From a virus: 64,000 bases of DNA. Of the stretch, positions 26,052-34,788 are shown piece by piece (the stretch's first letter is position 1; the number at the start of each line of letters is the position of its first letter). The stretch spans positions 1 through 64,000 of the IMG/VR virus record IMGVR_UViG_3300043777_000365. One strand, given 5' to 3'. A model generated the notes under the pieces. It worked only from the letters and a program-made list of their open reading frames with translations. It was not told where the DNA came from and searched no databases. The position numbers and the translations under genes are program-made.

Positions 26052-27179
26052 TCACACCAGGGTGATGCCCGAGGCGAGCGCGCGGAGCGTCTGCCCGGGG
26101 GTGGGGACGAGGTCGCCGGTGGGGCTGACGATGGTGCCCGGGGTGCTGACGATGAGCCCCTGGCTCGCGTACCGCTGCAGCACGCTGTAGAGCGCGGAGA
26201 GCTGCAGCGTGCCGTTGGCGGGCAGCGAGTTGACGTAGTTGAGCACGGCCGCCTGCACCGACGCGCTGAGCGCCGACGTGTTCACCCCGGCCGCGAACAC
26301 CAGGTGCATCGACACCGACACGATCTGCGGGACGGTCGGGAAGACGATGACCTGGATGCCGGCGGCCCTCCAGTTGCCCAGGTTCTGGACGACCGTGGCG
26401 GCGAGCACCAGGTTCGCCACCCCGCTCGAGTCGGCGATGTAGAGGTAGACGAGCCGCGCCGGGGCCCCCGTGTTCGTGATGACCTCGACGGCCTGCGCGC
26501 TGACGACGCCCGGGGTCTGGATGGCGCCGTACTGGATGGCGGAGAGGATGCCGCGCTGCTGCGCGGTCCAGTAGCCGCGGACGCGCTCGCGGAACGTGTC
26601 GTCGTCCTCGACGTCCTCGCCGCCGGCCGTGGCGAACAGGTTGTTGCACGTGATGGACGGGTCGAAGACCTGCGACGGGTTCGCGAAGGCCGTGAGGCTG
26701 TTCGCCCCCACCTGCGACAGCTTGCCCGCCTGCACCGCGCGCACGGCCGCCACGGCCACCGTGTCGCTCACGGCCCCCGTCCCCGAGGTGAAGGTGGCGC
26801 TCGTCGTCGTCAGGTAGTTGAAGCCGCTCTGGCTCTTGAGGACGGTGCCGGCGGGGATGGTGCCGGCGGGGTTGGTCGCGAGCACCCGCGAGAACGTCTC
26901 GAGCCCGAGCGCGGCCGAGGCCCCTTTGCGCAGGAGCTGGTAGCGGTCCCACGCGTAGCGGTCGAGGTCGTCGCCCTCGGCCCCGTCGAGGAAGAGCCGG
27001 TTGATGCTGTAGGCGAGCTGGAGGATGCAGAGGTAGGCGATCTCGCTGACGGACCCGACGAAGATGTTCGCGTCGGTGCCCTGCACGTCGACCTGCTGCG
27101 GGTCGATCTTGATGGCCTTCGCGATGAGATACGAGCGCCCGACCTGGTACAGGTCATTTCGGCTCACGAGATCAGCCAT
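26052..27179 (-). CDS. Baseplate J-like protein
   Basis: AEGDDLDRYA, TIPAGT, GGEDVEDDDTFRER, PGVVSA. Confidence 0.9.
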   Translation of the reverse strand: MADLVSRNDLYQVGRSYLIAKAIKIDPQQVDVQGTDANIFVGSVSEIAYLCILQLAYSINRLFLDGAEGDDLDRYAWDRYQLLRKGASAALGLETFSRVLATNPAGTIPAGTVLKSQSGFNYLTTTSATFTSGTGAVSDTVAVAAVRAVQAGKLSQVGANSLTAFANPSQVFDPSITCNNLFATAGGEDVEDDDTFRERVRGYWTAQQRGILSAIQYGAIQTPGVVSAQAVEVITNTGAPARLVYLYIADSSGVANLVLAATVVQNLGNWRAAGIQVIVFPTVPQIVSVSMHLVFAAGVNTSALSASVQAAVLNYVNSLPANGTLQLSALYSVLQRYASQGLIVSTPGTIVSPTGDLVPTPGQTLRALASGITLV

Positions 27180-27217
27180 GGTTTTGACCCATCGCCTGCC
27201 GAAGCTACCACCGACCC

Positions 27218-28213
27218 CTAAGTCTGAGGGCCGGTCGGGGCGAGCGGAGTGGCTCCGGCGGTCGGCGGGAGGGCCTGGCCGGTCTGCGTGTTGAAAGGCA
27301 TGTTGAGCTGGCGGCTCACACCCTGCCGCGTCTGCACGTACGCGGAGAACCTCGTGATCTGCGGGGTCACCGGGTCGGAGTAGGCCTGCACCGCGCACTT
27401 CAGGACCTCGGGCTCGAGGGAGAACTGCGACTGGAGCGCCGCGGCGAGCTGGTTGCGCACGGCGGCCGTGCCCAGCGTCTTCACCTTGTCGGCGAGCCCC
27501 ACCCCGTACGTGAGCGGCAGGTGCGCGAATGCCCCGGGCCGGCTCATCGCCCGGCGGTAGAGCCGCTTGAGCAGGGCGACGATCCCCTGCTCGACGGCGT
27601 AGTCGCCCGAGTCGTCCACGACGAAGGCCCCGAGCGTCACGAGGCCCCCGCCCACGCTCGTCGCGACGGCGGCGGTGCTCGCGCCGATGGTCGACCCGGC
27701 GATGCCGGACTGGCTCTGCGGGTTGGCGAAGTCGCGCGTGGGCAGAGCCTGGTCCGAGCTCGCGACGACCAGCTGCTTGAGCACCCCGTAGAGCGTGTAC
27801 GACTGGGTCAGCGGGAACATCGGCACCCCGCCCGACGTCGTCAGCCCTGAGAGCGTGATGGTGTACTGCGCCGGGTACGGGCTCATCGGCCGGTCCATCA
27901 CGACGTCGATCTCGGAGCTTTGAATGGTGTCGGAGTAGTCGACGGTGGTGCCGGCCGAGACCGCCGTCACCGTGCGGACCGGGTTGTTGTCGTAGCCGAC
28001 CGTGCCGGCCACCGCGGCGACCGTGTAGTGGGACGGGTCGGCGCCGTCGGCCGGGTCGAGCACGCCGGACACGTACGGGACGACGTTGAAGTAGAGCCGC
28101 ACGACGTTCTCGGCGACGGCGACCGCGTAGAGCAGCTCGAGCCCGCCCGTGGAGGAGTCGGGGGTGCCGCCCCAGTTCGACCCGCCCCAGTTGGCTTCGC
28201 CCCAGCCGGGCAT
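27218..28213 (-). CDS. Baseplate protein (Ig-like N-terminus, gp25/W-like C-terminus)
   Basis: DDSGDY..LLKRLYRR..PGAFAHLP.YGVGL..EPEV; position between spike and J. Confidence 0.6.
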   Translation of the reverse strand: MPGWGEANWGGSNWGGTPDSSTGGLELLYAVAVAENVVRLYFNVVPYVSGVLDPADGADPSHYTVAAVAGTVGYDNNPVRTVTAVSAGTTVDYSDTIQSSEIDVVMDRPMSPYPAQYTITLSGLTTSGGVPMFPLTQSYTLYGVLKQLVVASSDQALPTRDFANPQSQSGIAGSTIGASTAAVATSVGGGLVTLGAFVVDDSGDYAVEQGIVALLKRLYRRAMSRPGAFAHLPLTYGVGLADKVKTLGTAAVRNQLAAALQSQFSLEPEVLKCAVQAYSDPVTPQITRFSAYVQTRQGVSRQLNMPFNTQTGQALPPTAGATPLAPTGPQT

Positions 28214-28572
28214 CAGGCCGCCAGCTCGAAGTCGTCGAGGTCGGGAACGCACGCGCTCACGCGCCCGCCGACCGCCGGGAGGGTGAGCCCCGCGGTGATG
28301 TTGAAGCCGTTGCAGTTGAGCAGGAACTTCAGGAAGAAGGTCGGCAGGTTGAGGATGAACTTGATCTGCAGCGCGAAGCCCGGGAGGGCGAACGAGAAGA
28401 AGAAGCTGAAGCTCAGCGTGAACGGGATGCACGGGATGGGGATGGTGATCGAGCCGCTGAAGCCCGCGCCGACCACCCCGCCGCATCCCCCCGTCCCGAC
28501 CGACACCCCGCCCGAGGCCCCGACGAAGGTGCCGGAGCCCGGCGGCGGCAGGTCGACGATCGGCGCTCCCAT
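28213..28572 (-). CDS. Small hypothetical virion protein
   Basis: Lies between spike and wedge genes. Confidence 0.45.
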   Translation of the reverse strand: MGAPIVDLPPPGSGTFVGASGGVSVGTGGCGGVVGAGFSGSITIPIPCIPFTLSFSFFFSFALPGFALQIKFILNLPTFFLKFLLNCNGFNITAGLTLPAVGGRVSACVPDLDDFELAA

Positions 28573-28582
28573 GGCGGCGAGC

Positions 28583-29539
28583 TTACACCAAGACCCCCCC
28601 GCACCCGACGCCGGAGCTGACGCCGGGAACGCGGGGCGTGGCGAGCGCGGTGGCGACGACGGGGTACACGGTGGAGTCGGGGATGACCGCGCCCAGGGGC
28701 AGGCCGGCGAGGACGTACGCGAGCGTCGTCGCCGGGGTCATCGTCGCGGCGAGGGTCGCCCCGGTGAGCGGCCCGGCCAGCGCGGCGACCGCCGCCGCCC
28801 ACGGCACCATGAAGCCCATGATGATGTTGCACACCCCCTCGATGGTCGCGACGTGGTCGGTGGGCTGGGCCCCGGCCGCCCCGAGGTAGATGCTCCCGGA
28901 CGGGTTGAGCATCGTGATGGAGCTGGTCGACGGGTCGATGGTGAACAGGATGGGCGAGTCGCCGCCGGCGACGATCGCGACGGCGTTCGACTGGGTGGAG
29001 AGCTTGATCCCGTTGGAGTCGAGCCGGACGTAGTCGCCCTCGCCCGACTGCATCGCCCAGTTGCCGCTCGCGTCCATCGCCAGCTGGGACTGCGTCGTGT
29101 CGTTGAGGACCATCCACCCGTTCTCGAACTCGAGGATGGTGTTCGGGATGGTGCGCTGGACGTTGATGTTGTTCTGGGTGACGTCGAGCCCGGCGACGAC
29201 GTTCGGCCACGTGTCGACCCCGTTGGACAGGTGCCCGGTGATGATCCCTCCCGCGCGCTCGTCCCCCTGGGGGATCTGGACGATGACCTCGTCGCCGGCC
29301 TGGATGGCGTGCCAGCTGCCCTCGCCCACGCCCGCGCTCGCCTGGGCCACGCGGCAGCGGACGGGGATGTCGCTCGGGTGCAGCCGCACGTTGACCAGCG
29401 GGTAGCCGTTGGTGAAGTCCACGGGGCTCGTGCCGCCGATGGCGTTCTCGACGATGCCGATGCTCGTCCACTGCCGGGTGTCCATGCCCGGGCGGGCGAC
29501 CGACTGGCCGATGTCGCTGGAGTCGAAGTCGTCGGGCAT
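28583..29539 (-). CDS. Baseplate spike (gpV/gp5 OB-fold)
   Basis: AGVGEGSW..IQAGDEVIV..PQGD, followed by beta-helix-like repeats. Confidence 0.75.
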   Translation of the reverse strand: MPDDFDSSDIGQSVARPGMDTRQWTSIGIVENAIGGTSPVDFTNGYPLVNVRLHPSDIPVRCRVAQASAGVGEGSWHAIQAGDEVIVQIPQGDERAGGIITGHLSNGVDTWPNVVAGLDVTQNNINVQRTIPNTILEFENGWMVLNDTTQSQLAMDASGNWAMQSGEGDYVRLDSNGIKLSTQSNAVAIVAGGDSPILFTIDPSTSSITMLNPSGSIYLGAAGAQPTDHVATIEGVCNIIMGFMVPWAAAVAALAGPLTGATLAATMTPATTLAYVLAGLPLGAVIPDSTVYPVVATALATPRVPGVSSGVGCGGVLV

Positions 29540-29577
29540 GGCCGGAGCTTAGTTGGAAACCCGGGTTTCCAAACCCC

Positions 29578-32424
29578 TCAGGTGACCCCGCTCGACTGCT
29601 GGGTCGAGGTCGGCTTCGTCCCCGCCTGCGGCATCAGCGTCGAGTCGTCGAAGCCGCTGTTCGCGTCAAGCGCCACCTCGACGAAGTTGACCGCGTCGAC
29701 CTCGATCGTGAGCCCCTGGTCCACGTCCCACGCGAGCGAGTCGCTCTTCACGACGAACTGGCTCTGGAAGCTCGTGGACGAGAACGCCTTGAGGTACGCG
29801 CTGATGAACTGCGGGTCGAACCCGAGCGCGGACAGCTGCTGCTGGGCGGCGGCCTGCTGGGTGGCGGCGTCCTCGAGCTCGCCGATGGAGTGCTGCACGG
29901 CGGTGGGCTGGCTCGTGTCCACCCGGTCGACCAGGTACTCGATGCGGTCGCCGGCGAGCATGTCGAGCACGTCCGGGTCGGAGTTGTCGCCGCCGTAGCT
30001 CGCGGTGTTGCGCGCGGTGAGCTTCACCTGCAGCTCCCCGCGGTTCAGCCCCTCGTAGTAGTGCTGCGCCGCCACCTGGAGCGTGTTGAGGTCGGTGATG
30101 CCGCTGACGGTGTAGACGCAGTACTTGGTGACGTTGCCGCCGTCGCCGGGGAGGGTGGAGACGGGGCGGATGTTCTTGGTGGGGGTGCCGGTGGAGCTGC
30201 CCTGCTTCAGCGGGGGGTGGCGCGCGACGAGAGTTTGCTTCTTGGACTCGTCGTAGCAGTTGTGGGTTATGATCCCGTCCGACGTGAACCAACCCGACCG
30301 AGTCTGGAGATTGTAGACGTGCCCCGACCAAGCAGAACGCTCGACCTTGAGGACCTTGCTCGTCGTTACGCGGACGGAGCCACGTTCGCCGAGCTCGAAC
30401 GCGCCGAGAACCTCCCGCACAACGCCTTGTGCAGGCACTTCCGACGAGCTGGGATTCCGACTCGCACCGGTGGCGTGGAGCGGAATCGCAAACATCGAAG
30501 AGAGCTGGCGATGTTGCTGGAGAAGCTTCCAGACCTTCCGCAACAATATGCGACCGGGGCCGCCTCCATCCGAGACTTGTCGAGGTCGTTCCACCTGGAC
30601 AGCAAAGTCGTCCGAGACTTGCTCGTCCTCGCCGGGGTCGAGGTCCGAACTTTGTGCGCCGCCAGCCAAAACCGCTTCCGAAAACTCGGACCAGAGGGAG
30701 CCAAAGCCCTCACCGAGCCCATGCACGCCGCCGTGCGCGGTCGCCGCTGGCCTCGTGAGCTCGTGCGCCGAATGCAGGAGGAACGAGCAAAGGCGCTGCA
30801 GAAGTCTCGTCGCCACGAAGGTCGGTTCGAGGCCGAGCTTGCCAAAATGCTTCGGCGCCGAGGACTGCGGCCCGTCCCGCAGCAAGCCGTTGGTCGTTAC
30901 AACCTCGACCTCGGACTCCATCCCATCGCCGTGGAAGTCCACCTTTCCGGTGGGTCTCCTCTCCACTCCGCCCGCCTTCGAAAGCGAGTCAAAGACCTTG
31001 CCGATCTCGGTTGGTCCAGCGTCTTCGTTTGGCTCAACCCCAGGTCCCCGCTTCGGGAGGGCGCAGCAGACAAGATCGTCGCCCTCCACGAGCTCGCCCA
31101 TCGCGACCCATCCGCGCGCCGTGAGCACTGGGTGATTCGGGGTTCCGGAGAGGACCCGCCCGTTCCAGGCACGTGCGGTTACAAGGGTCCCTGAGTACCA
31201 CCGCCGATAGGCCTTCTCGACGTCCCTGGCCGCGACGACCGAGTCGCCCACCAGGCAGCGAAGCTCGATGGCCTTGCGGGCGGTGCGGGTGTACTTGCGC
31301 CCGCACTTCGCGCTCTTGAGGTTCCGCCCCCAGACGAACGTGCGCAGCGGGTGCACCTGGCCGTCGGCCCACGTGTAGCCGGTGAACGGGTCGTCGTAGC
31401 GGGGAGGGAACCCCTTGCTCGTCGCGGAGCGGACCCGCTGGATGACGACCGTGGTCCCCTCGACGCGGCAGTTGTGCCCGACGAGGAGCATGATCTCGAC
31501 GAGGTAGTCCCACACGCTCATCTTGTTGGTGCCGCTGGTGCCGCCGCCCTTGTTCGCGGTGGGGCCGCCGAGGTCGGGCCGGTACGCGCTCGGCCCCATC
31601 GACGTCGAGAGCATCGGGATGCTGCCGGAGGGGACCGCCGGCCGGTACTCGACCGACAGCCCCTGGAACTGGGGGAAGTTGGTGAGCAGCTGGGCCACGG
31701 CCTGGTCCAGGGGCTTGGTCACGTCGATGGAGAGCATCGGCGGCATCTCCTGGTCGAGCAGGAGGCGCGTGTTGTCGACGCACTTCATCCGCACGAGCGC
31801 CGTGCCCTCCGACGAGAACTCGTAGTCCCAGTCGTCGACCCAGCCCTGGAAGCGGAGGTTCGTGCGGGGGTTGCCCTTGGAGTCGACCCACGTGTCCGGG
31901 ACCATGTTCACCGGGGTGGCGGTCTGCGTCTGGCCCTGCGTGGCGGTCTGCGTCTGCCCGGCCACCCCCTGGGAGAACTGGTCTTGGGTGAGCATGCCCA
32001 GGTAGAACTCGATGGCGACGGAGCGGAACGCGCGCGGGTCCACCGGCAGGTCGATGTAGCGGAAGGCGACGTCGAGCGTGTCGCCCTGCTTCCAGCCGTT
32101 GCGGCCCATCTTCGCGTCGTGGGGGATGATGCCCGCGACCACCTGGGTGAGCCCGTCGGAGCTCGAGCTCTGCGCCTGCGGCCCGCCGGGGGCGGCCTGG
32201 GCGCCGGCCGCCGCGATGACGTAGCGGGTGATCCCCGCCGGGGCGGTGGGGTCCTGCTGGTAGGTGAGGGGGGCGTTCTGGGAGACGGTGCCCTTGAGCA
32301 GCTGCGGGGGCTGGAGCGTGGACGGGTCGACGATGCTGTCCGCGTACTCCTCGAGCCGGAGGATGAGCCGGATCTTCGCCCCCGGGAAGTACGACTGGTC
32401 GGTCGGGTAATCTTGGTTGGGCAC
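29578..32424 (-). CDS. Baseplate hub (gpD/gp27-like) protein containing an intein
   Basis: Position between LysM and spike genes; FQGWVD and SVWDYL; intein motifs. Confidence 0.75.
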   Translation of the reverse strand: MPNQDYPTDQSYFPGAKIRLILRLEEYADSIVDPSTLQPPQLLKGTVSQNAPLTYQQDPTAPAGITRYVIAAAGAQAAPGGPQAQSSSSDGLTQVVAGIIPHDAKMGRNGWKQGDTLDVAFRYIDLPVDPRAFRSVAIEFYLGMLTQDQFSQGVAGQTQTATQGQTQTATPVNMVPDTWVDSKGNPRTNLRFQGWVDDWDYEFSSEGTALVRMKCVDNTRLLLDQEMPPMLSIDVTKPLDQAVAQLLTNFPQFQGLSVEYRPAVPSGSIPMLSTSMGPSAYRPDLGGPTANKGGGTSGTNKMSVWDYLVEIMLLVGHNCRVEGTTVVIQRVRSATSKGFPPRYDDPFTGYTWADGQVHPLRTFVWGRNLKSAKCGRKYTRTARKAIELRCLVGDSVVAARDVEKAYRRWYSGTLVTARAWNGRVLSGTPNHPVLTARGWVAMGELVEGDDLVCCALPKRGPGVEPNEDAGPTEIGKVFDSLSKAGGVERRPTGKVDFHGDGMESEVEVVTTNGLLRDGPQSSAPKHFGKLGLEPTFVATRLLQRLCSFLLHSAHELTRPAATAHGGVHGLGEGFGSLWSEFSEAVLAGGAQSSDLDPGEDEQVSDDFAVQVERPRQVSDGGGPGRILLRKVWKLLQQHRQLSSMFAIPLHATGASRNPSSSEVPAQGVVREVLGAFELGERGSVRVTTSKVLKVERSAWSGHVYNLQTRSGWFTSDGIITHNCYDESKKQTLVARHPPLKQGSSTGTPTKNIRPVSTLPGDGGNVTKYCVYTVSGITDLNTLQVAAQHYYEGLNRGELQVKLTARNTASYGGDNSDPDVLDMLAGDRIEYLVDRVDTSQPTAVQHSIGELEDAATQQAAAQQQLSALGFDPQFISAYLKAFSSTSFQSQFVVKSDSLAWDVDQGLTIEVDAVNFVEVALDANSGFDDSTLMPQAGTKPTSTQQSSGVT
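30259..31257 (-). mobile_element. Intein (333 aa) in the baseplate hub
   Basis: Block A CLVGDS; block B GTPNHPVLT..GW; block F VYNLQT; block G GIITHN followed by +1 Cys. Confidence 0.92.
30319..31194 (+). CDS. HTH plus DUF559/Vsr-like endonuclease encoded antisense inside the intein
   Basis: GGAGA RBS 8 nt before GTG 30319; two HTH-like repeats; FEAELAKML..QQAVGRYNLDL..IAVEV..H..L.DLGWSSVFVW. Confidence 0.78.
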   Translation: MPRPSRTLDLEDLARRYADGATFAELERAENLPHNALCRHFRRAGIPTRTGGVERNRKHRRELAMLLEKLPDLPQQYATGAASIRDLSRSFHLDSKVVRDLLVLAGVEVRTLCAASQNRFRKLGPEGAKALTEPMHAAVRGRRWPRELVRRMQEERAKALQKSRRHEGRFEAELAKMLRRRGLRPVPQQAVGRYNLDLGLHPIAVEVHLSGGSPLHSARLRKRVKDLADLGWSSVFVWLNPRSPLREGAADKIVALHELAHRDPSARREHWVIRGSGEDPPVPGTCGYKGP

Positions 32425-32480
32425 GCTCCTGAGCTTAGTTGGAAACCCGGGTTTCCAACCGATGGCGGCATGATGGGCCT

Positions 32481-33479
32481 ATGTCAGGCCACGTCGACCA
32501 GCGGAACCGAGACCTGCGCGTGCTGCGCGAACTCTGCGAGGAGGGAGAGGTCGAAGGGACCTCGCTCGACGTGCCAGAGGCGTTCTACGAGATGCTCGTG
32601 CGGGTCGAGGAACGAGGCCTGGTCCTCACCCCGAAGCAGCGCAAGTGGGTGAACGACGTCGCCGCCAAGTCGGGCTTCATCGAAGAGAGCGCTGGCCCAG
32701 AAGAGGACGGGGGACCCGAGCCCGCGTGCTTCACCGACGGCCCCATCCCTCGCGGCAAGGAGGTCGAGCTGCTCGTGCGCGACAAGCCGCTGCGTCCGCC
32801 GGCGAGGACCCCAGACCGATGACTCGCAGACGGGAGGCCACCGTAACCATCGAGGGCTACCACCTCGGCTCCGGGCAGGTGACGGCCCTGCGGGTCGCGT
32901 GCACGAGCTGGCTGTGCGAGCTGGACGAGGGCCACGCCGCGGAGCTCGGGGAGATTGGCCGGCTCTACCAAGAGCGACTACGCGAAGTCCTCGCGATGTT
33001 GGTCGACTGATGCCCGACTCGGAAGCGCCCGACCCGCCCGAATCCGACCCCTACTGCCGGCATTGGTCGGCGATCTGGGACTGCGAGGTCAAGTGCGCAA
33101 GGTGTGGGCACGAGTGCCGCAAGCACGACCACGATGTCTCCTTCGTGGAGGGCGAAGGAATCTCGTGCGAGGAGTGCGGGTGTCCGGCCTGGGTGGAACC
33201 ATTGGAACCATGAAATTAGAGATGCTCTATGCCGAATGCTGGAAGCTAAGCGGGCGAACCTTTCACTTGGAGGTCCTCACCGACCGGTTGGGATGTTGCA
33301 CGACCATCAACTGGACCGCGTTGGTGCGTGGCGTCCCTTATCAGCTCATGATCCCGATCCTCGAGAATGGTCGCACGACGGGAGACCCGATCGACTTGCT
33401 CCGGACTCTCCTCGAGCAGGCGCACTCCTGCCTGCAAGAAGTCGCCGCTAGACCGTCGTCGCCGACTGCTGGCTCGTAA
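32481..33479 (+). other. Opposite-strand accessory cassette of 4 small ORFs (32481-32822, 32819-33010, 33010-33213, 33210-33479)
   Basis: Begins 6 nt after CATGAT, just downstream of the palindrome at 32439; coupled ORFs. Confidence 0.6.
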
Positions 33480-34788
33480 GCGCCGGGACGAGCAGCACGT
33501 CCCCGCCCACGAACGTCGCGAGCCCCCAGGGCAGGTGGTTCGCCCGCAGGAGGAACAGCGCCTGCTCCGCGCTCCCGTAGAACTTCCTCGCGATCCACTG
33601 CGGCGTGTCGCCGGCCTTGGCCGTGTACACCGCGACGAGCCCCGCGGTGGTCATGCCGGCCGTCTGTTGCCCGCTCACGCGGCCGCCGCCCGGGTTGCTC
33701 GAGATGCGAGGCAGCGCCTTCGTCCGGGTGTCGCTCGCGGTCTTGGCCAGCTGCGCCGCGCTCGTCATCAGGTCGGACACGTACTTGGACGCGCGCAGGT
33801 AGTCCGCCAGGCTCGACCCGTTCTGCACGTCGAGCTCGAACGGCACCGCCGACAGGCTCTGGCGGAAGTTGTTCGCCGCCACGATGGTCGTCGAGCACAT
33901 CGCGACGACGTTCTGCGACTGGGCGATGGGGGTGGTCTTCAGCTTGTTGGCGAGGGCGCTCGCCTGCGCGTAGCGGTTCTGGATCTGCTGGAGGTTGGTG
34001 TTGAGCGTGGACACGGCCGCCGTGAGCGCCGGGCTCACCGCCTCGAGCCGGCCGAGCGTGGTCGCCGTCGCCCCGAAGCCGATGCCGCTGGAGAAGCCGC
34101 TGCCCCCGCTCACCACCCCGAAGCCGAAGCTACCCCCCAACGAGGCGGACAGCCCGATGGACGCGCTAAAGAACGCCGCCGTCGGGGCCGTGAGGACCAT
34201 CGTGTCGTTCAGGGCGCCGATGACGGCGCTGCCGAGCGTGGCGACGTCGGTGTCGCGGGTGCTCGCCGCCACCTGCTGTGCGCCGCCCCGACCGTCCCAG
34301 TCGAACTTGATGGTCCAGTGGATGTCGTCGACGTCGTCGTGCGGGAACTCCCACTCCGTCGCCCGCCCCGTCCGCACGACGCTGTACTGGTAGGCGGACA
34401 CGTCCCCGCTGATCGGGTCGACCTCCTCCTTGTCCACGGTCCAGGTCACCTGCAGCCGCGCCCCCTGGAAGAACATCAGGTCGAGGAAGTTCTTCAGCAC
34501 CGTCGGGGTCGCCGTGGCCTGGTCCCCCTGCTGCGAGGAGCCGTACGTGGACGGGGCGCGCGCCATCATGTTGCGGCGCCACTGCCCCTCCCACGTGGAG
34601 GGCATCTCGCGCGGGCCGAGCACCTGCTGCGTCGCGGTGGTGCCGTTGCCCGGGTACCAGTCGGTGATGACCTTCTGCGAGGTCTTCCACGACGCCCCCC
34701 AGTTGGGCAGTGCCGGGCCGATGAGGCTGACGCGCCGCCCTTGGCTGCCGCTGATCTCGACGATGCTGATGACCGACCCGGCCGCCAT
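33448..34788 (-). CDS. Tail tube initiator/baseplate protein with C-terminal LysM
   Basis: YTAKAGDTPQWIARKFYGS..LLRANHL..LLVP. Confidence 0.8.
   Translation of the reverse strand: MAAGSVISIVEISGSQGRRVSLIGPALPNWGASWKTSQKVITDWYPGNGTTATQQVLGPREMPSTWEGQWRRNMMARAPSTYGSSQQGDQATATPTVLKNFLDLMFFQGARLQVTWTVDKEEVDPISGDVSAYQYSVVRTGRATEWEFPHDDVDDIHWTIKFDWDGRGGAQQVAASTRDTDVATLGSAVIGALNDTMVLTAPTAAFFSASIGLSASLGGSFGFGVVSGGSGFSSGIGFGATATTLGRLEAVSPALTAAVSTLNTNLQQIQNRYAQASALANKLKTTPIAQSQNVVAMCSTTIVAANNFRQSLSAVPFELDVQNGSSLADYLRASKYVSDLMTSAAQLAKTASDTRTKALPRISSNPGGGRVSGQQTAGMTTAGLVAVYTAKAGDTPQWIARKFYGSAEQALFLLRANHLPWGLATFVGGDVLLVPALTSQQSATTV

Follow-up and report, generated by a model that had tools for sequence, protein, structure and literature searches.

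The 64,000-nucleotide stretch of viral DNA analyzed here (the window; positions 1 to 64,000 of IMG/VR virus record IMGVR_UViG_3300043777_000365) most probably contains a mobile class-1 intein, inserted in a gene for a probable baseplate hub, whose homing endonuclease is encoded as a separate gene on the opposite strand, and we place the probability of this reading at roughly 0.8. The source record was assembled from a soil metagenome, and is 86,753 bp in length with a CheckV completeness of 93%. Intein homing endonucleases are normally translated within the host protein, and their appearance is therefore confined to the times and places of host-gene expression. A sequence-only reading of the window, made without database searches, had proposed a different arrangement here, with a complete intein lacking LAGLIDADG and HNH motifs on one strand and a nuclease gene on the other.

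The intein is delimited by its absence from relatives. A search with the N-extein returned 81 homologues of the host protein (P0154-P0234; 213-681 residues), every one of which is annotated as hypothetical. Five of these (P0154-P0158; 614-617 residues, 79-83% identity to the whole precursor) lack exactly 333 residues, and their intein-less joint reads ...IE[IL/V]R followed by C[YW]..; more distant homologues likewise lack the 333 residues. By sequence comparison, this precise absence confirms the intein and its boundaries. NCBI assigns one of the five, P0155, to the metagenome-assembled genome of a Thermoplasmata archaeon, probably through a binning artefact involving a phage contig. Within the intein, block B is T39-P-N-H42, block F is GHVYNLQT (residues 312-319) and block G is IITHN (H332-N333). 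The first cysteine is retained in 82 of the 83 aligned loci introduced below, T39, N41, H42 and N333 are invariant across 50 inteins, and the two ends of the intein form a HINT fold. Profile searches of both frames, a check that had been put forward along with the original proposal, gave Intein_splicing as the sole Pfam match in the sense frame (E 1.8e-6, under the gathering score), with no LAGLIDADG and no HNH match in the sense frame of the intein. Between the splicing parts lies a linker in which the pLDDT score (predicted local distance difference test) falls below 50 at intein residues 131-144, 172-186, 188-236, 256-267 and 269-292, and with this low confidence and no match, no nuclease is seen in the sense insert.

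The opposite strand contains the 291-codon open reading frame (ORF) that had been proposed, with a ribosome-binding site of its own. All 876 nt of this gene lie inside the intein, with its GTG start mirroring the codon of block F His313 and its TGA stop mirroring the TCA codon of Ser22. Codons on the two strands face each other in perfect antiparallel alignment, such that position 2 of a plus-strand codon coincides with position 2 of a minus-strand codon, and in this register a stop in one frame is TTA, CTA or TCA in the other. A full-library HMMER search with the predicted nuclease found 1,520 clusters (formed at 50% identity, mostly 220-300 residues) at E ≤ 0.001, of which 908 reach E ≤ 1e-10 and 25 reach E ≤ 1e-30. 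When 48 members are aligned, two helix-turn-helix (HTH) repeats and a nuclease core stand out, in agreement with the HTH-like repeats and DUF559/Vsr-like signature read from the sequence. N195 and D197 are invariant in this alignment, E171, Q188 and Y194 are found in 47 of 48 members and E206 and R223 in 46; E171, N195, D197, E206 and R223 are all present in the full-length nuclease of the window. In Pfam, MTES_1575 matched 38 of the 48 members (E ≤ 0.01, best 1.5e-11), the resolvase-type HTH_7 matched 26 and DUF559 six. The window nuclease itself scores 21.7 bits against MTES_1575, below the gathering cut-off of 38.2, and has no match among NCBIfam or PHROG models. We take MTES_1575 and DUF559 to be members of the PD-(D/E)XK clan.

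An AlphaFold2 model of the nuclease has a pLDDT of 92.7 and a predicted template modelling score of 0.69. Foldseek matched this model to structures 3r3p and 1vsr with probabilities of 0.98-0.99, yet weak E-values of 0.02-0.6; VIA-align gave a clear Vsr-fold result, and the nearest fold is that of the homing enzyme I-Bth0305I. In a phmmer search against PDB sequences no relative of the nuclease was found, 3R3P being unmatched at E ≤ 10. The predicted kinship to I-Bth0305I is therefore visible by modelled fold and not by sequence. Of the residues that might correspond to the EDxHD catalytic set, E171 and D197 are conserved, and the candidate histidine is position 213; this residue (30955-30957, plus strand) is serine in the window, and among the 48 family members it is histidine in 29, asparagine in 10 and serine in four.

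Because the window has a GC content of 0.69 and long antisense ORFs are common in it, an open antisense frame alone proves nothing, and the family as a whole is more informative. A scan of IMG/VR with two nuclease motifs only gave 222 relatives, the best 80 of which were kept and combined with phages Vivi2 and Aaphi23 and the window to give 83 loci. The window's own record (L003) was dropped before all counts, and identical intein DNA was counted once, giving 75 distinct loci for codon avoidance and 73 for selection and expression signals. In all 83 loci the antiparallel frame has no stop over the nuclease match, whereas the other two opposite frames have 1-28, and the open frame extends into long ORFs on both sides. 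Nine of nine further loci agree, although six of the nine were fetched via the intein and hence are not independent. Block A and B motifs (C[FLV]xG, TPNHP) are present in 83 of 83 loci, and blocks F and G (GHVYNLQT, HN|C) are reached in 81, with L051 and L053 lacking the C-terminal end where they are cut by contig ends. The nuclease is thus found only inside inteins in all 92 loci examined, at no fewer than four different host-gene sites. No TTA, CTA or TCA codon is observed in the nuclease frame of the 75 distinct loci, where 193 are expected from host codon usage. The arrangement is kept down to a GC content of 0.43, and at 0.43-0.47 some 7-9 blocking codons are expected per locus. Judged from protein sequence alone, residues 272-275 of the 48 aligned nucleases are V/M/I, I/V, mostly R/W/G (41 of 48, with L and D among the exceptions) and G/S/R/C; with few exceptions they appear to fit what mirrored T-P-N-H codons can encode, and this mirror motif is borne by 127 of the 150 best hits.

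Selection was compared between strands after aligning the 73 distinct inteins by their sense translation, a choice biased against the nuclease. Over the linker (intein residues 69-239), the most variable codon position is sense position 1, equivalent to nuclease position 3 (0.620 vs 0.524 at sense position 3), and amino-acid identity is 0.359 in the nuclease frame vs 0.237 in the sense frame. In the splicing parts the pattern is inverted, with sense position 3 the most variable and sense identities of 0.36, 0.46 and 0.54 for residues 1-21, 22-68 and 314-333 vs 0.19, 0.35 and 0.29 in the mirror frame. A nuclease-based alignment gave the same picture. Selection therefore tracks the nuclease frame in the center and the intein frame at the splicing blocks, and the codon-position comparison that had been suggested across homologues comes out in favor of a nuclease frame conserved in the center. 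At the protein level, a close intein-bearing relative (P0235) has sense identities to the window of 0.83 and 0.81 for the exteins, 0.75 and 0.64 for the splicing ends and 0.53 for the linker. Separately, intein residues 81-121 (30895-31017, minus strand), which mirror the active-site strands of the nuclease, are modelled with pLDDT of 65-94, and sense F108, H109, G110 and D111 are nearly invariant, their motif VDFHGDG mirroring the nuclease PIAVEVH. This subregion may be either genuine structure or a shadow of opposite-strand conservation that misleads the predictor.

The putative expression signals of the nuclease gene fall within codons of the splicing blocks (Table 1). Opposite the two codons that precede T-H-N of block G, the hexamer has the form TAnnnT in 39 of 73 distinct inteins; it matches TATAAT at five or more of six positions in 32, perfectly in 14, and is preceded by TGn in 17. 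Among extein codon pairs (n=34,136) the corresponding frequencies are 0.0023 for TAnnnT and 0.0007 for a match of at least five in six. Codon tests were restricted to loci with the named residue at the position and at least five reference codons. By these tests Ile(-4) is the rare codon ATA in 26 of 37 inteins (expected 3.0), Ile(-5) is ATT in 27 of 52 (expected 9.0, P 5e-11) and Thr(-3) is ACA in 13 of 34 (expected 3.9). At block F, the mirror of the histidine codon is ATG in 40, GTG in 19 and TTG in one of 73 inteins. The histidine is written CAT in 33 of 45 (expected 14.4), the leucine of N-L-Q is written CTC, the mirror of GAG, in 51 of 70 (expected 21.9), and GGAG or GAGG stands at the Shine-Dalgarno position in 49 of 73. 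Codon choice in both blocks is thus strongly biased towards these putative signals. A terminator scan found one terminator-like site, on the minus strand and within chance.

Table 1. Features of the intein locus; positions are those of the window.
Feature	Position	Strand	Details
Host gene	29578-32424	-	948-residue precursor ORF giving a 615-residue mature protein; probable Mu gp44-like baseplate hub
N-extein	31258-32424	-	389 residues, ending ...KAIELR; from alignment with intein-less homologues
C-extein	29578-30258	-	226 residues plus stop, starting CYDESKK; from alignment with intein-less homologues
Class-1 intein	30259-31257	-	333 residues (precursor residues 390-722); Cys1 CLVGD ... IITHN, +1 Cys (CYDE)
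Sense-frame linker	30394-31053	-	Intein residues 69-288; open, poorly conserved, structure confidence mostly low
Antisense homing-endonuclease gene	30319-31194	+	291 residues plus TGA (31192-31194); GTG start
Two helix-turn-helix DNA-binding modules	30346-30630	+	Nuclease residues ~10-43 and ~73-104
Vsr/MTES_1575-type nuclease core	30811-31158	+	Nuclease residues 165-280, with E171, N195, D197, E206, R223
-10-like hexamer TATGAT	30268-30273	+	Mirror of block G Ile-Ile codons ATC-ATA
Shine-Dalgarno GGAG	30306-30309	+	Mirror of block F Leu-Gln codons; 9 nt before GTG 30319

The host protein has no match in Pfam, PHROG, NCBIfam or PDB profile searches, and the proposal that it is a baseplate hub is upheld only as probable, from gene position and ESM-Atlas neighbors. 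Its gene lies just upstream of a Phage_base_V-like spike gene (28583-29539), with a Baseplate_J gene at 26052-27182, both on the same strand. These neighbors (0.97) are Mu gp44-like hubs bearing PF22255, PF21683 and PF21929, and we regard the protein as a probable member of this group.

Several observations suggest that the element has moved. The intein is patchily distributed among relatives of approximately 80% identity, being present in one (P0235) and absent from five, and two more distant hosts (L004 and L005) have it at the same site. In addition, GC content at the third codon position (GC3) in the sense frame is 0.987 in both exteins and ~0.98-0.99 in neighboring genes (26052-34788), and drops to 0.72 in the linker. 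The patchy distribution, the shared site and the drop in GC3 together argue for horizontal gain, which does not by itself prove current activity. Along the intein, GC3 is 0.72-0.79 save for the first 21 codons (0.95), which the nuclease gene does not overlap, and in the last 20 codons, which bear the mirrored -10 and Shine-Dalgarno sequences, GC content at the first codon position is 0.40. Contigs of three DNA runs were compared, and the source soil run covers the whole stretch. A run from a lake-water metagenome contains a 188-nt contig that matches 30343-30530 with two differences; a near-identical element thus exists outside the source soil sample.

The majority of insertion sites in the family are of the MuF types HPx|CRC and EVxN|CRC, with Phage_Mu_F confirmed in L001, L002 and L032, and in L030 the intein lies in a head-morphogenesis protein. 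The window site, N[VI]E[VL]R|CY, is common to L004 and L005 (38-40% host identity). In L007 and L013 the host is a family-A DNA polymerase with a uracil-DNA glycosylase-like N-domain. The same intein with its antisense nuclease occurs at the site ..N..|C[RH]PP of such a polymerase in L006, L007, L013, L014 and L020. A 1,397-residue ORF in L032 (3899-8089, minus strand), a fusion of portal and MuF domains, contains two inteins, a LAGLIDADG/Hint_2 intein in the portal part and an antisense-Vsr intein at the MuF site. Using tblastn, the nuclease matched 111 of 50,697 phage records (Salmonella 60, Gordonia 15, Pseudomonas 15, Vibrio 4, and others). Five records were inspected (Vivi2, Aaphi23, a Pseudomonas phage, Jerseyvirus jersey and a Vibrio phage), and in each the match runs antisense to a gene annotated as head-morphogenesis, MuF-like or hypothetical. 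The Gordonia phages Vivi2, Fosterous and Angelicage match at 35-37% identity (E 6e-38 to 9e-31), on the strand opposite MuF-like genes. The nuclease therefore appears to have spread beyond actinophages, to phages of Salmonella, Pseudomonas, Vibrio and Aggregatibacter and to many uncultured viruses.

A mechanism that accommodates these features would run as follows. The late tail message would be translated through the entire insert, and the N- and C-terminal thirds of the intein would fold as a HINT domain and splice the insert out to give the 615-residue hub. The middle ~220 codons would be a passenger linker, which stays open because the antiparallel nuclease gene avoids TTA, CTA and TCA, the mirrors of the three stops. 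The nuclease signals would be written into the most conserved codons of the intein, block G (I-I-T-H-N) serving as the mirror of the -10 element and block F (H-V-Y-N-L-Q) mirroring the Shine-Dalgarno site and start codon. The nuclease, with its two HTH modules and Vsr-like core, would then cleave hub alleles that lack the intein (..IE[LI]R|CY..) in co-infecting relatives, and the intein would be copied in as the cut allele is repaired by recombination. We infer transcription and translation of the nuclease gene, its cleavage activity, splicing, and a timing independent of the late operon. The earlier idea that nuclease expression is uncoupled from that of the late tail genes is likewise an interpretation still, now partly supported by a -10-like box, a Shine-Dalgarno site and start codon, and codon bias in 73 inteins.

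Beyond this locus, we lean, by somewhat more than even odds, towards a broader view in which the HTH-Vsr nuclease constitutes an obligate intein-resident family (>1,500 clusters), always on the mirror strand of one intein lineage and in one register. The two strands would have co-evolved, with splicing motifs doubling as a promoter (block G, TGnTATAAT) and as a Shine-Dalgarno site and start codon (block F), and with "ghost" motifs (TPNH/VIRG and PIAVEVH/VDFHGDG) on the facing strands. With a nuclease on its own schedule, such an intein could enter a DNA polymerase gene and also genes for late structural proteins (MuF, baseplate hub), in phages of Actinobacteria and Proteobacteria.

A number of observations weigh against a functional, mobile element in the window. 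The TATGAT hexamer of the window is not preceded by TGn, a consensus promoter scan of 29500-31700 found no promoter, and no RNA run is listed as containing the stretch. The P-values for codon bias treat related loci as independent, although with a mean column identity of ~31% among inteins, synonymous sites should be saturated despite shared ancestry. As a test of frame in the window, GC3 favors neither strand (0.70 for the nuclease vs 0.72 for the sense frame, with resident genes at ~0.98). The window exteins themselves contain no TTA, CTA or TCA, so that the codon-avoidance test is uninformative for this locus, and, with the best 80 of 222 relatives retained, free-standing relatives may exist further out. 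Ser213 leaves the histidine of the EDxHD motif unsecured in the window. Finally, none of the source-sample contigs joins 30258 to 31258 across the intein, and thus there is no direct sign of ongoing homing.

Some of these same points would be expected if the antisense gene were an intact-looking relic, in which the intein splices, the nuclease is unmade or does not cut, and the element is inherited only vertically. Ser213 in place of the histidine of 29 of 48 members, the weaker -10 and the GTG start of the window, and the lack of an intein-less joint in the source sample are all compatible with such a relic, as are the vertical patterns described for some VSR-like homing endonuclease (HEN) inteins in a recent preprint (10.1101/2025.01.02.630785). 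We nevertheless consider it unlikely, given that the ORF is full length with all five core residues in place, that serine or asparagine at position 213 in 14 of 48 members, including near relatives, marks a family variant and not a private lesion, and that presence is patchy among relatives of ~80% identity. More doubtful still is the idea that the antisense protein is real and has a role other than homing, whether as a nuclease in competition between phages, as an HTH regulator, or through pairing of its transcript with the late tail message. The two HTH modules could be put to regulatory use, and hub output would fall if transcription converged across a late gene. However, the placement of 92 of 92 loci inside inteins at several host-gene sites is the distribution of a homing partner and not that of a regulator of one pathway, and the fold is nearest that of a proven homing enzyme.

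We rejected, as having almost no chance of being correct, the explanation that GC-rich DNA left the antisense frame open by chance and that the sense insert is a degenerate in-frame endonuclease. The composition of the window, its many long antisense ORFs and the lack of blocking codons in its exteins as well speak for this explanation, whereas the 908 clusters at E ≤ 1e-10, the confident model with Vsr-fold matches, the persistence of the arrangement at low GC content, and a sense center that is less conserved and mostly disordered speak against it. Homology, the 83 of 83 register, codon avoidance and strand-specific conservation decided the matter. The sequence-only reading had itself named, as grounds for abandoning it, an antisense ORF not conserved or expressed and with no nuclease fold, or a nuclease in the sense insert; on conservation, fold and the sense insert the data point the other way.

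If the homing-endonuclease gene is expressed as we propose, a promoter and ribosome site belonging to the antisense gene itself would remove the link to host-gene expression, and this freedom may explain the life of the intein lineage in late structural genes. The locus also offers a clear-cut example from nature of dual coding over a long antisense overlap, in which the strand under selection can be followed from segment to segment. A motif conserved on one strand may be a shadow cast by the other, which can mislead annotation and structure predictors, and because gene callers report only one of two such genes, inteins of this kind are filed as decaying and the nuclease family lacks a model of its own. 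A compact nuclease with modular HTH domains and conserved phage-gene targets could serve phage genome editing.

The expectation that out-of-frame intein endonucleases might have some precedent in phages was correct. Inteins with an "anti-sense VSR-like HEN" have been described in actinophages (Gosselin, Arsenault, Gogarten, bioRxiv 10.1101/2025.01.02.630785), and in the main text of that preprint, which surveys PhagesDB, the non-canonical HENs lie in DNA polymerase, minor capsid, TerL and thymidylate synthase genes. Our literature search found antisense Vsr-like endonucleases in full inteins in this preprint only, among sources represented largely by their main texts; those of Kelley 2016 and Dassa 2009 contain no antisense case. 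The Vsr-like homing enzymes described by Dassa 2009 and Taylor 2011, found in split inteins and an intron, are encoded on the same strand (PMC3239194, PMC2677866). I-Bth0305I, of the EDxHD type, and the free-standing endonucleases of "fractured genes" are located within a group I intron or between the two halves of a split intein, with the host frame broken. Compared with I-Bth0305I, the predicted fold of the window nuclease is alike, although the motif histidine is only partly conserved in the family and is serine in the window, and in Pfam the family is nearer to MTES_1575/DUF559. Antisense LAGLIDADG endonucleases, reported for inteins in Synechocystis DnaX and a Chloroflexus SpoVR-like protein (Gorbalenya 1998, Gogarten 2002, as cited in the preprint), lie opposite the intein strand as here, but belong to a different nuclease family. 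The "ShiLan" domain, an insertion in a phage methylase, resembles the window in that an HNH nuclease is hidden in another frame while the host gene stays open; in the account consulted (PMC11855218) it differs in being on the same strand, in its HNH nuclease and in not being established as an intein. The element in the window has both characters of the preprint's class, namely an endonuclease ORF antisense inside an intein and a Vsr-like catalytic fold, and its host, a probable baseplate hub, is unlike any of the four kinds of gene named there. The main text of the preprint does not describe a fixed register and contains neither "promoter" nor "ribosom", while its supplementary tables may list some of the same phages or hosts. 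What the present analysis adds to this class is a tail-structure host gene, a single fixed register, selection that switches strands along the intein, expression signals embedded in splicing motifs, and a wider spread.

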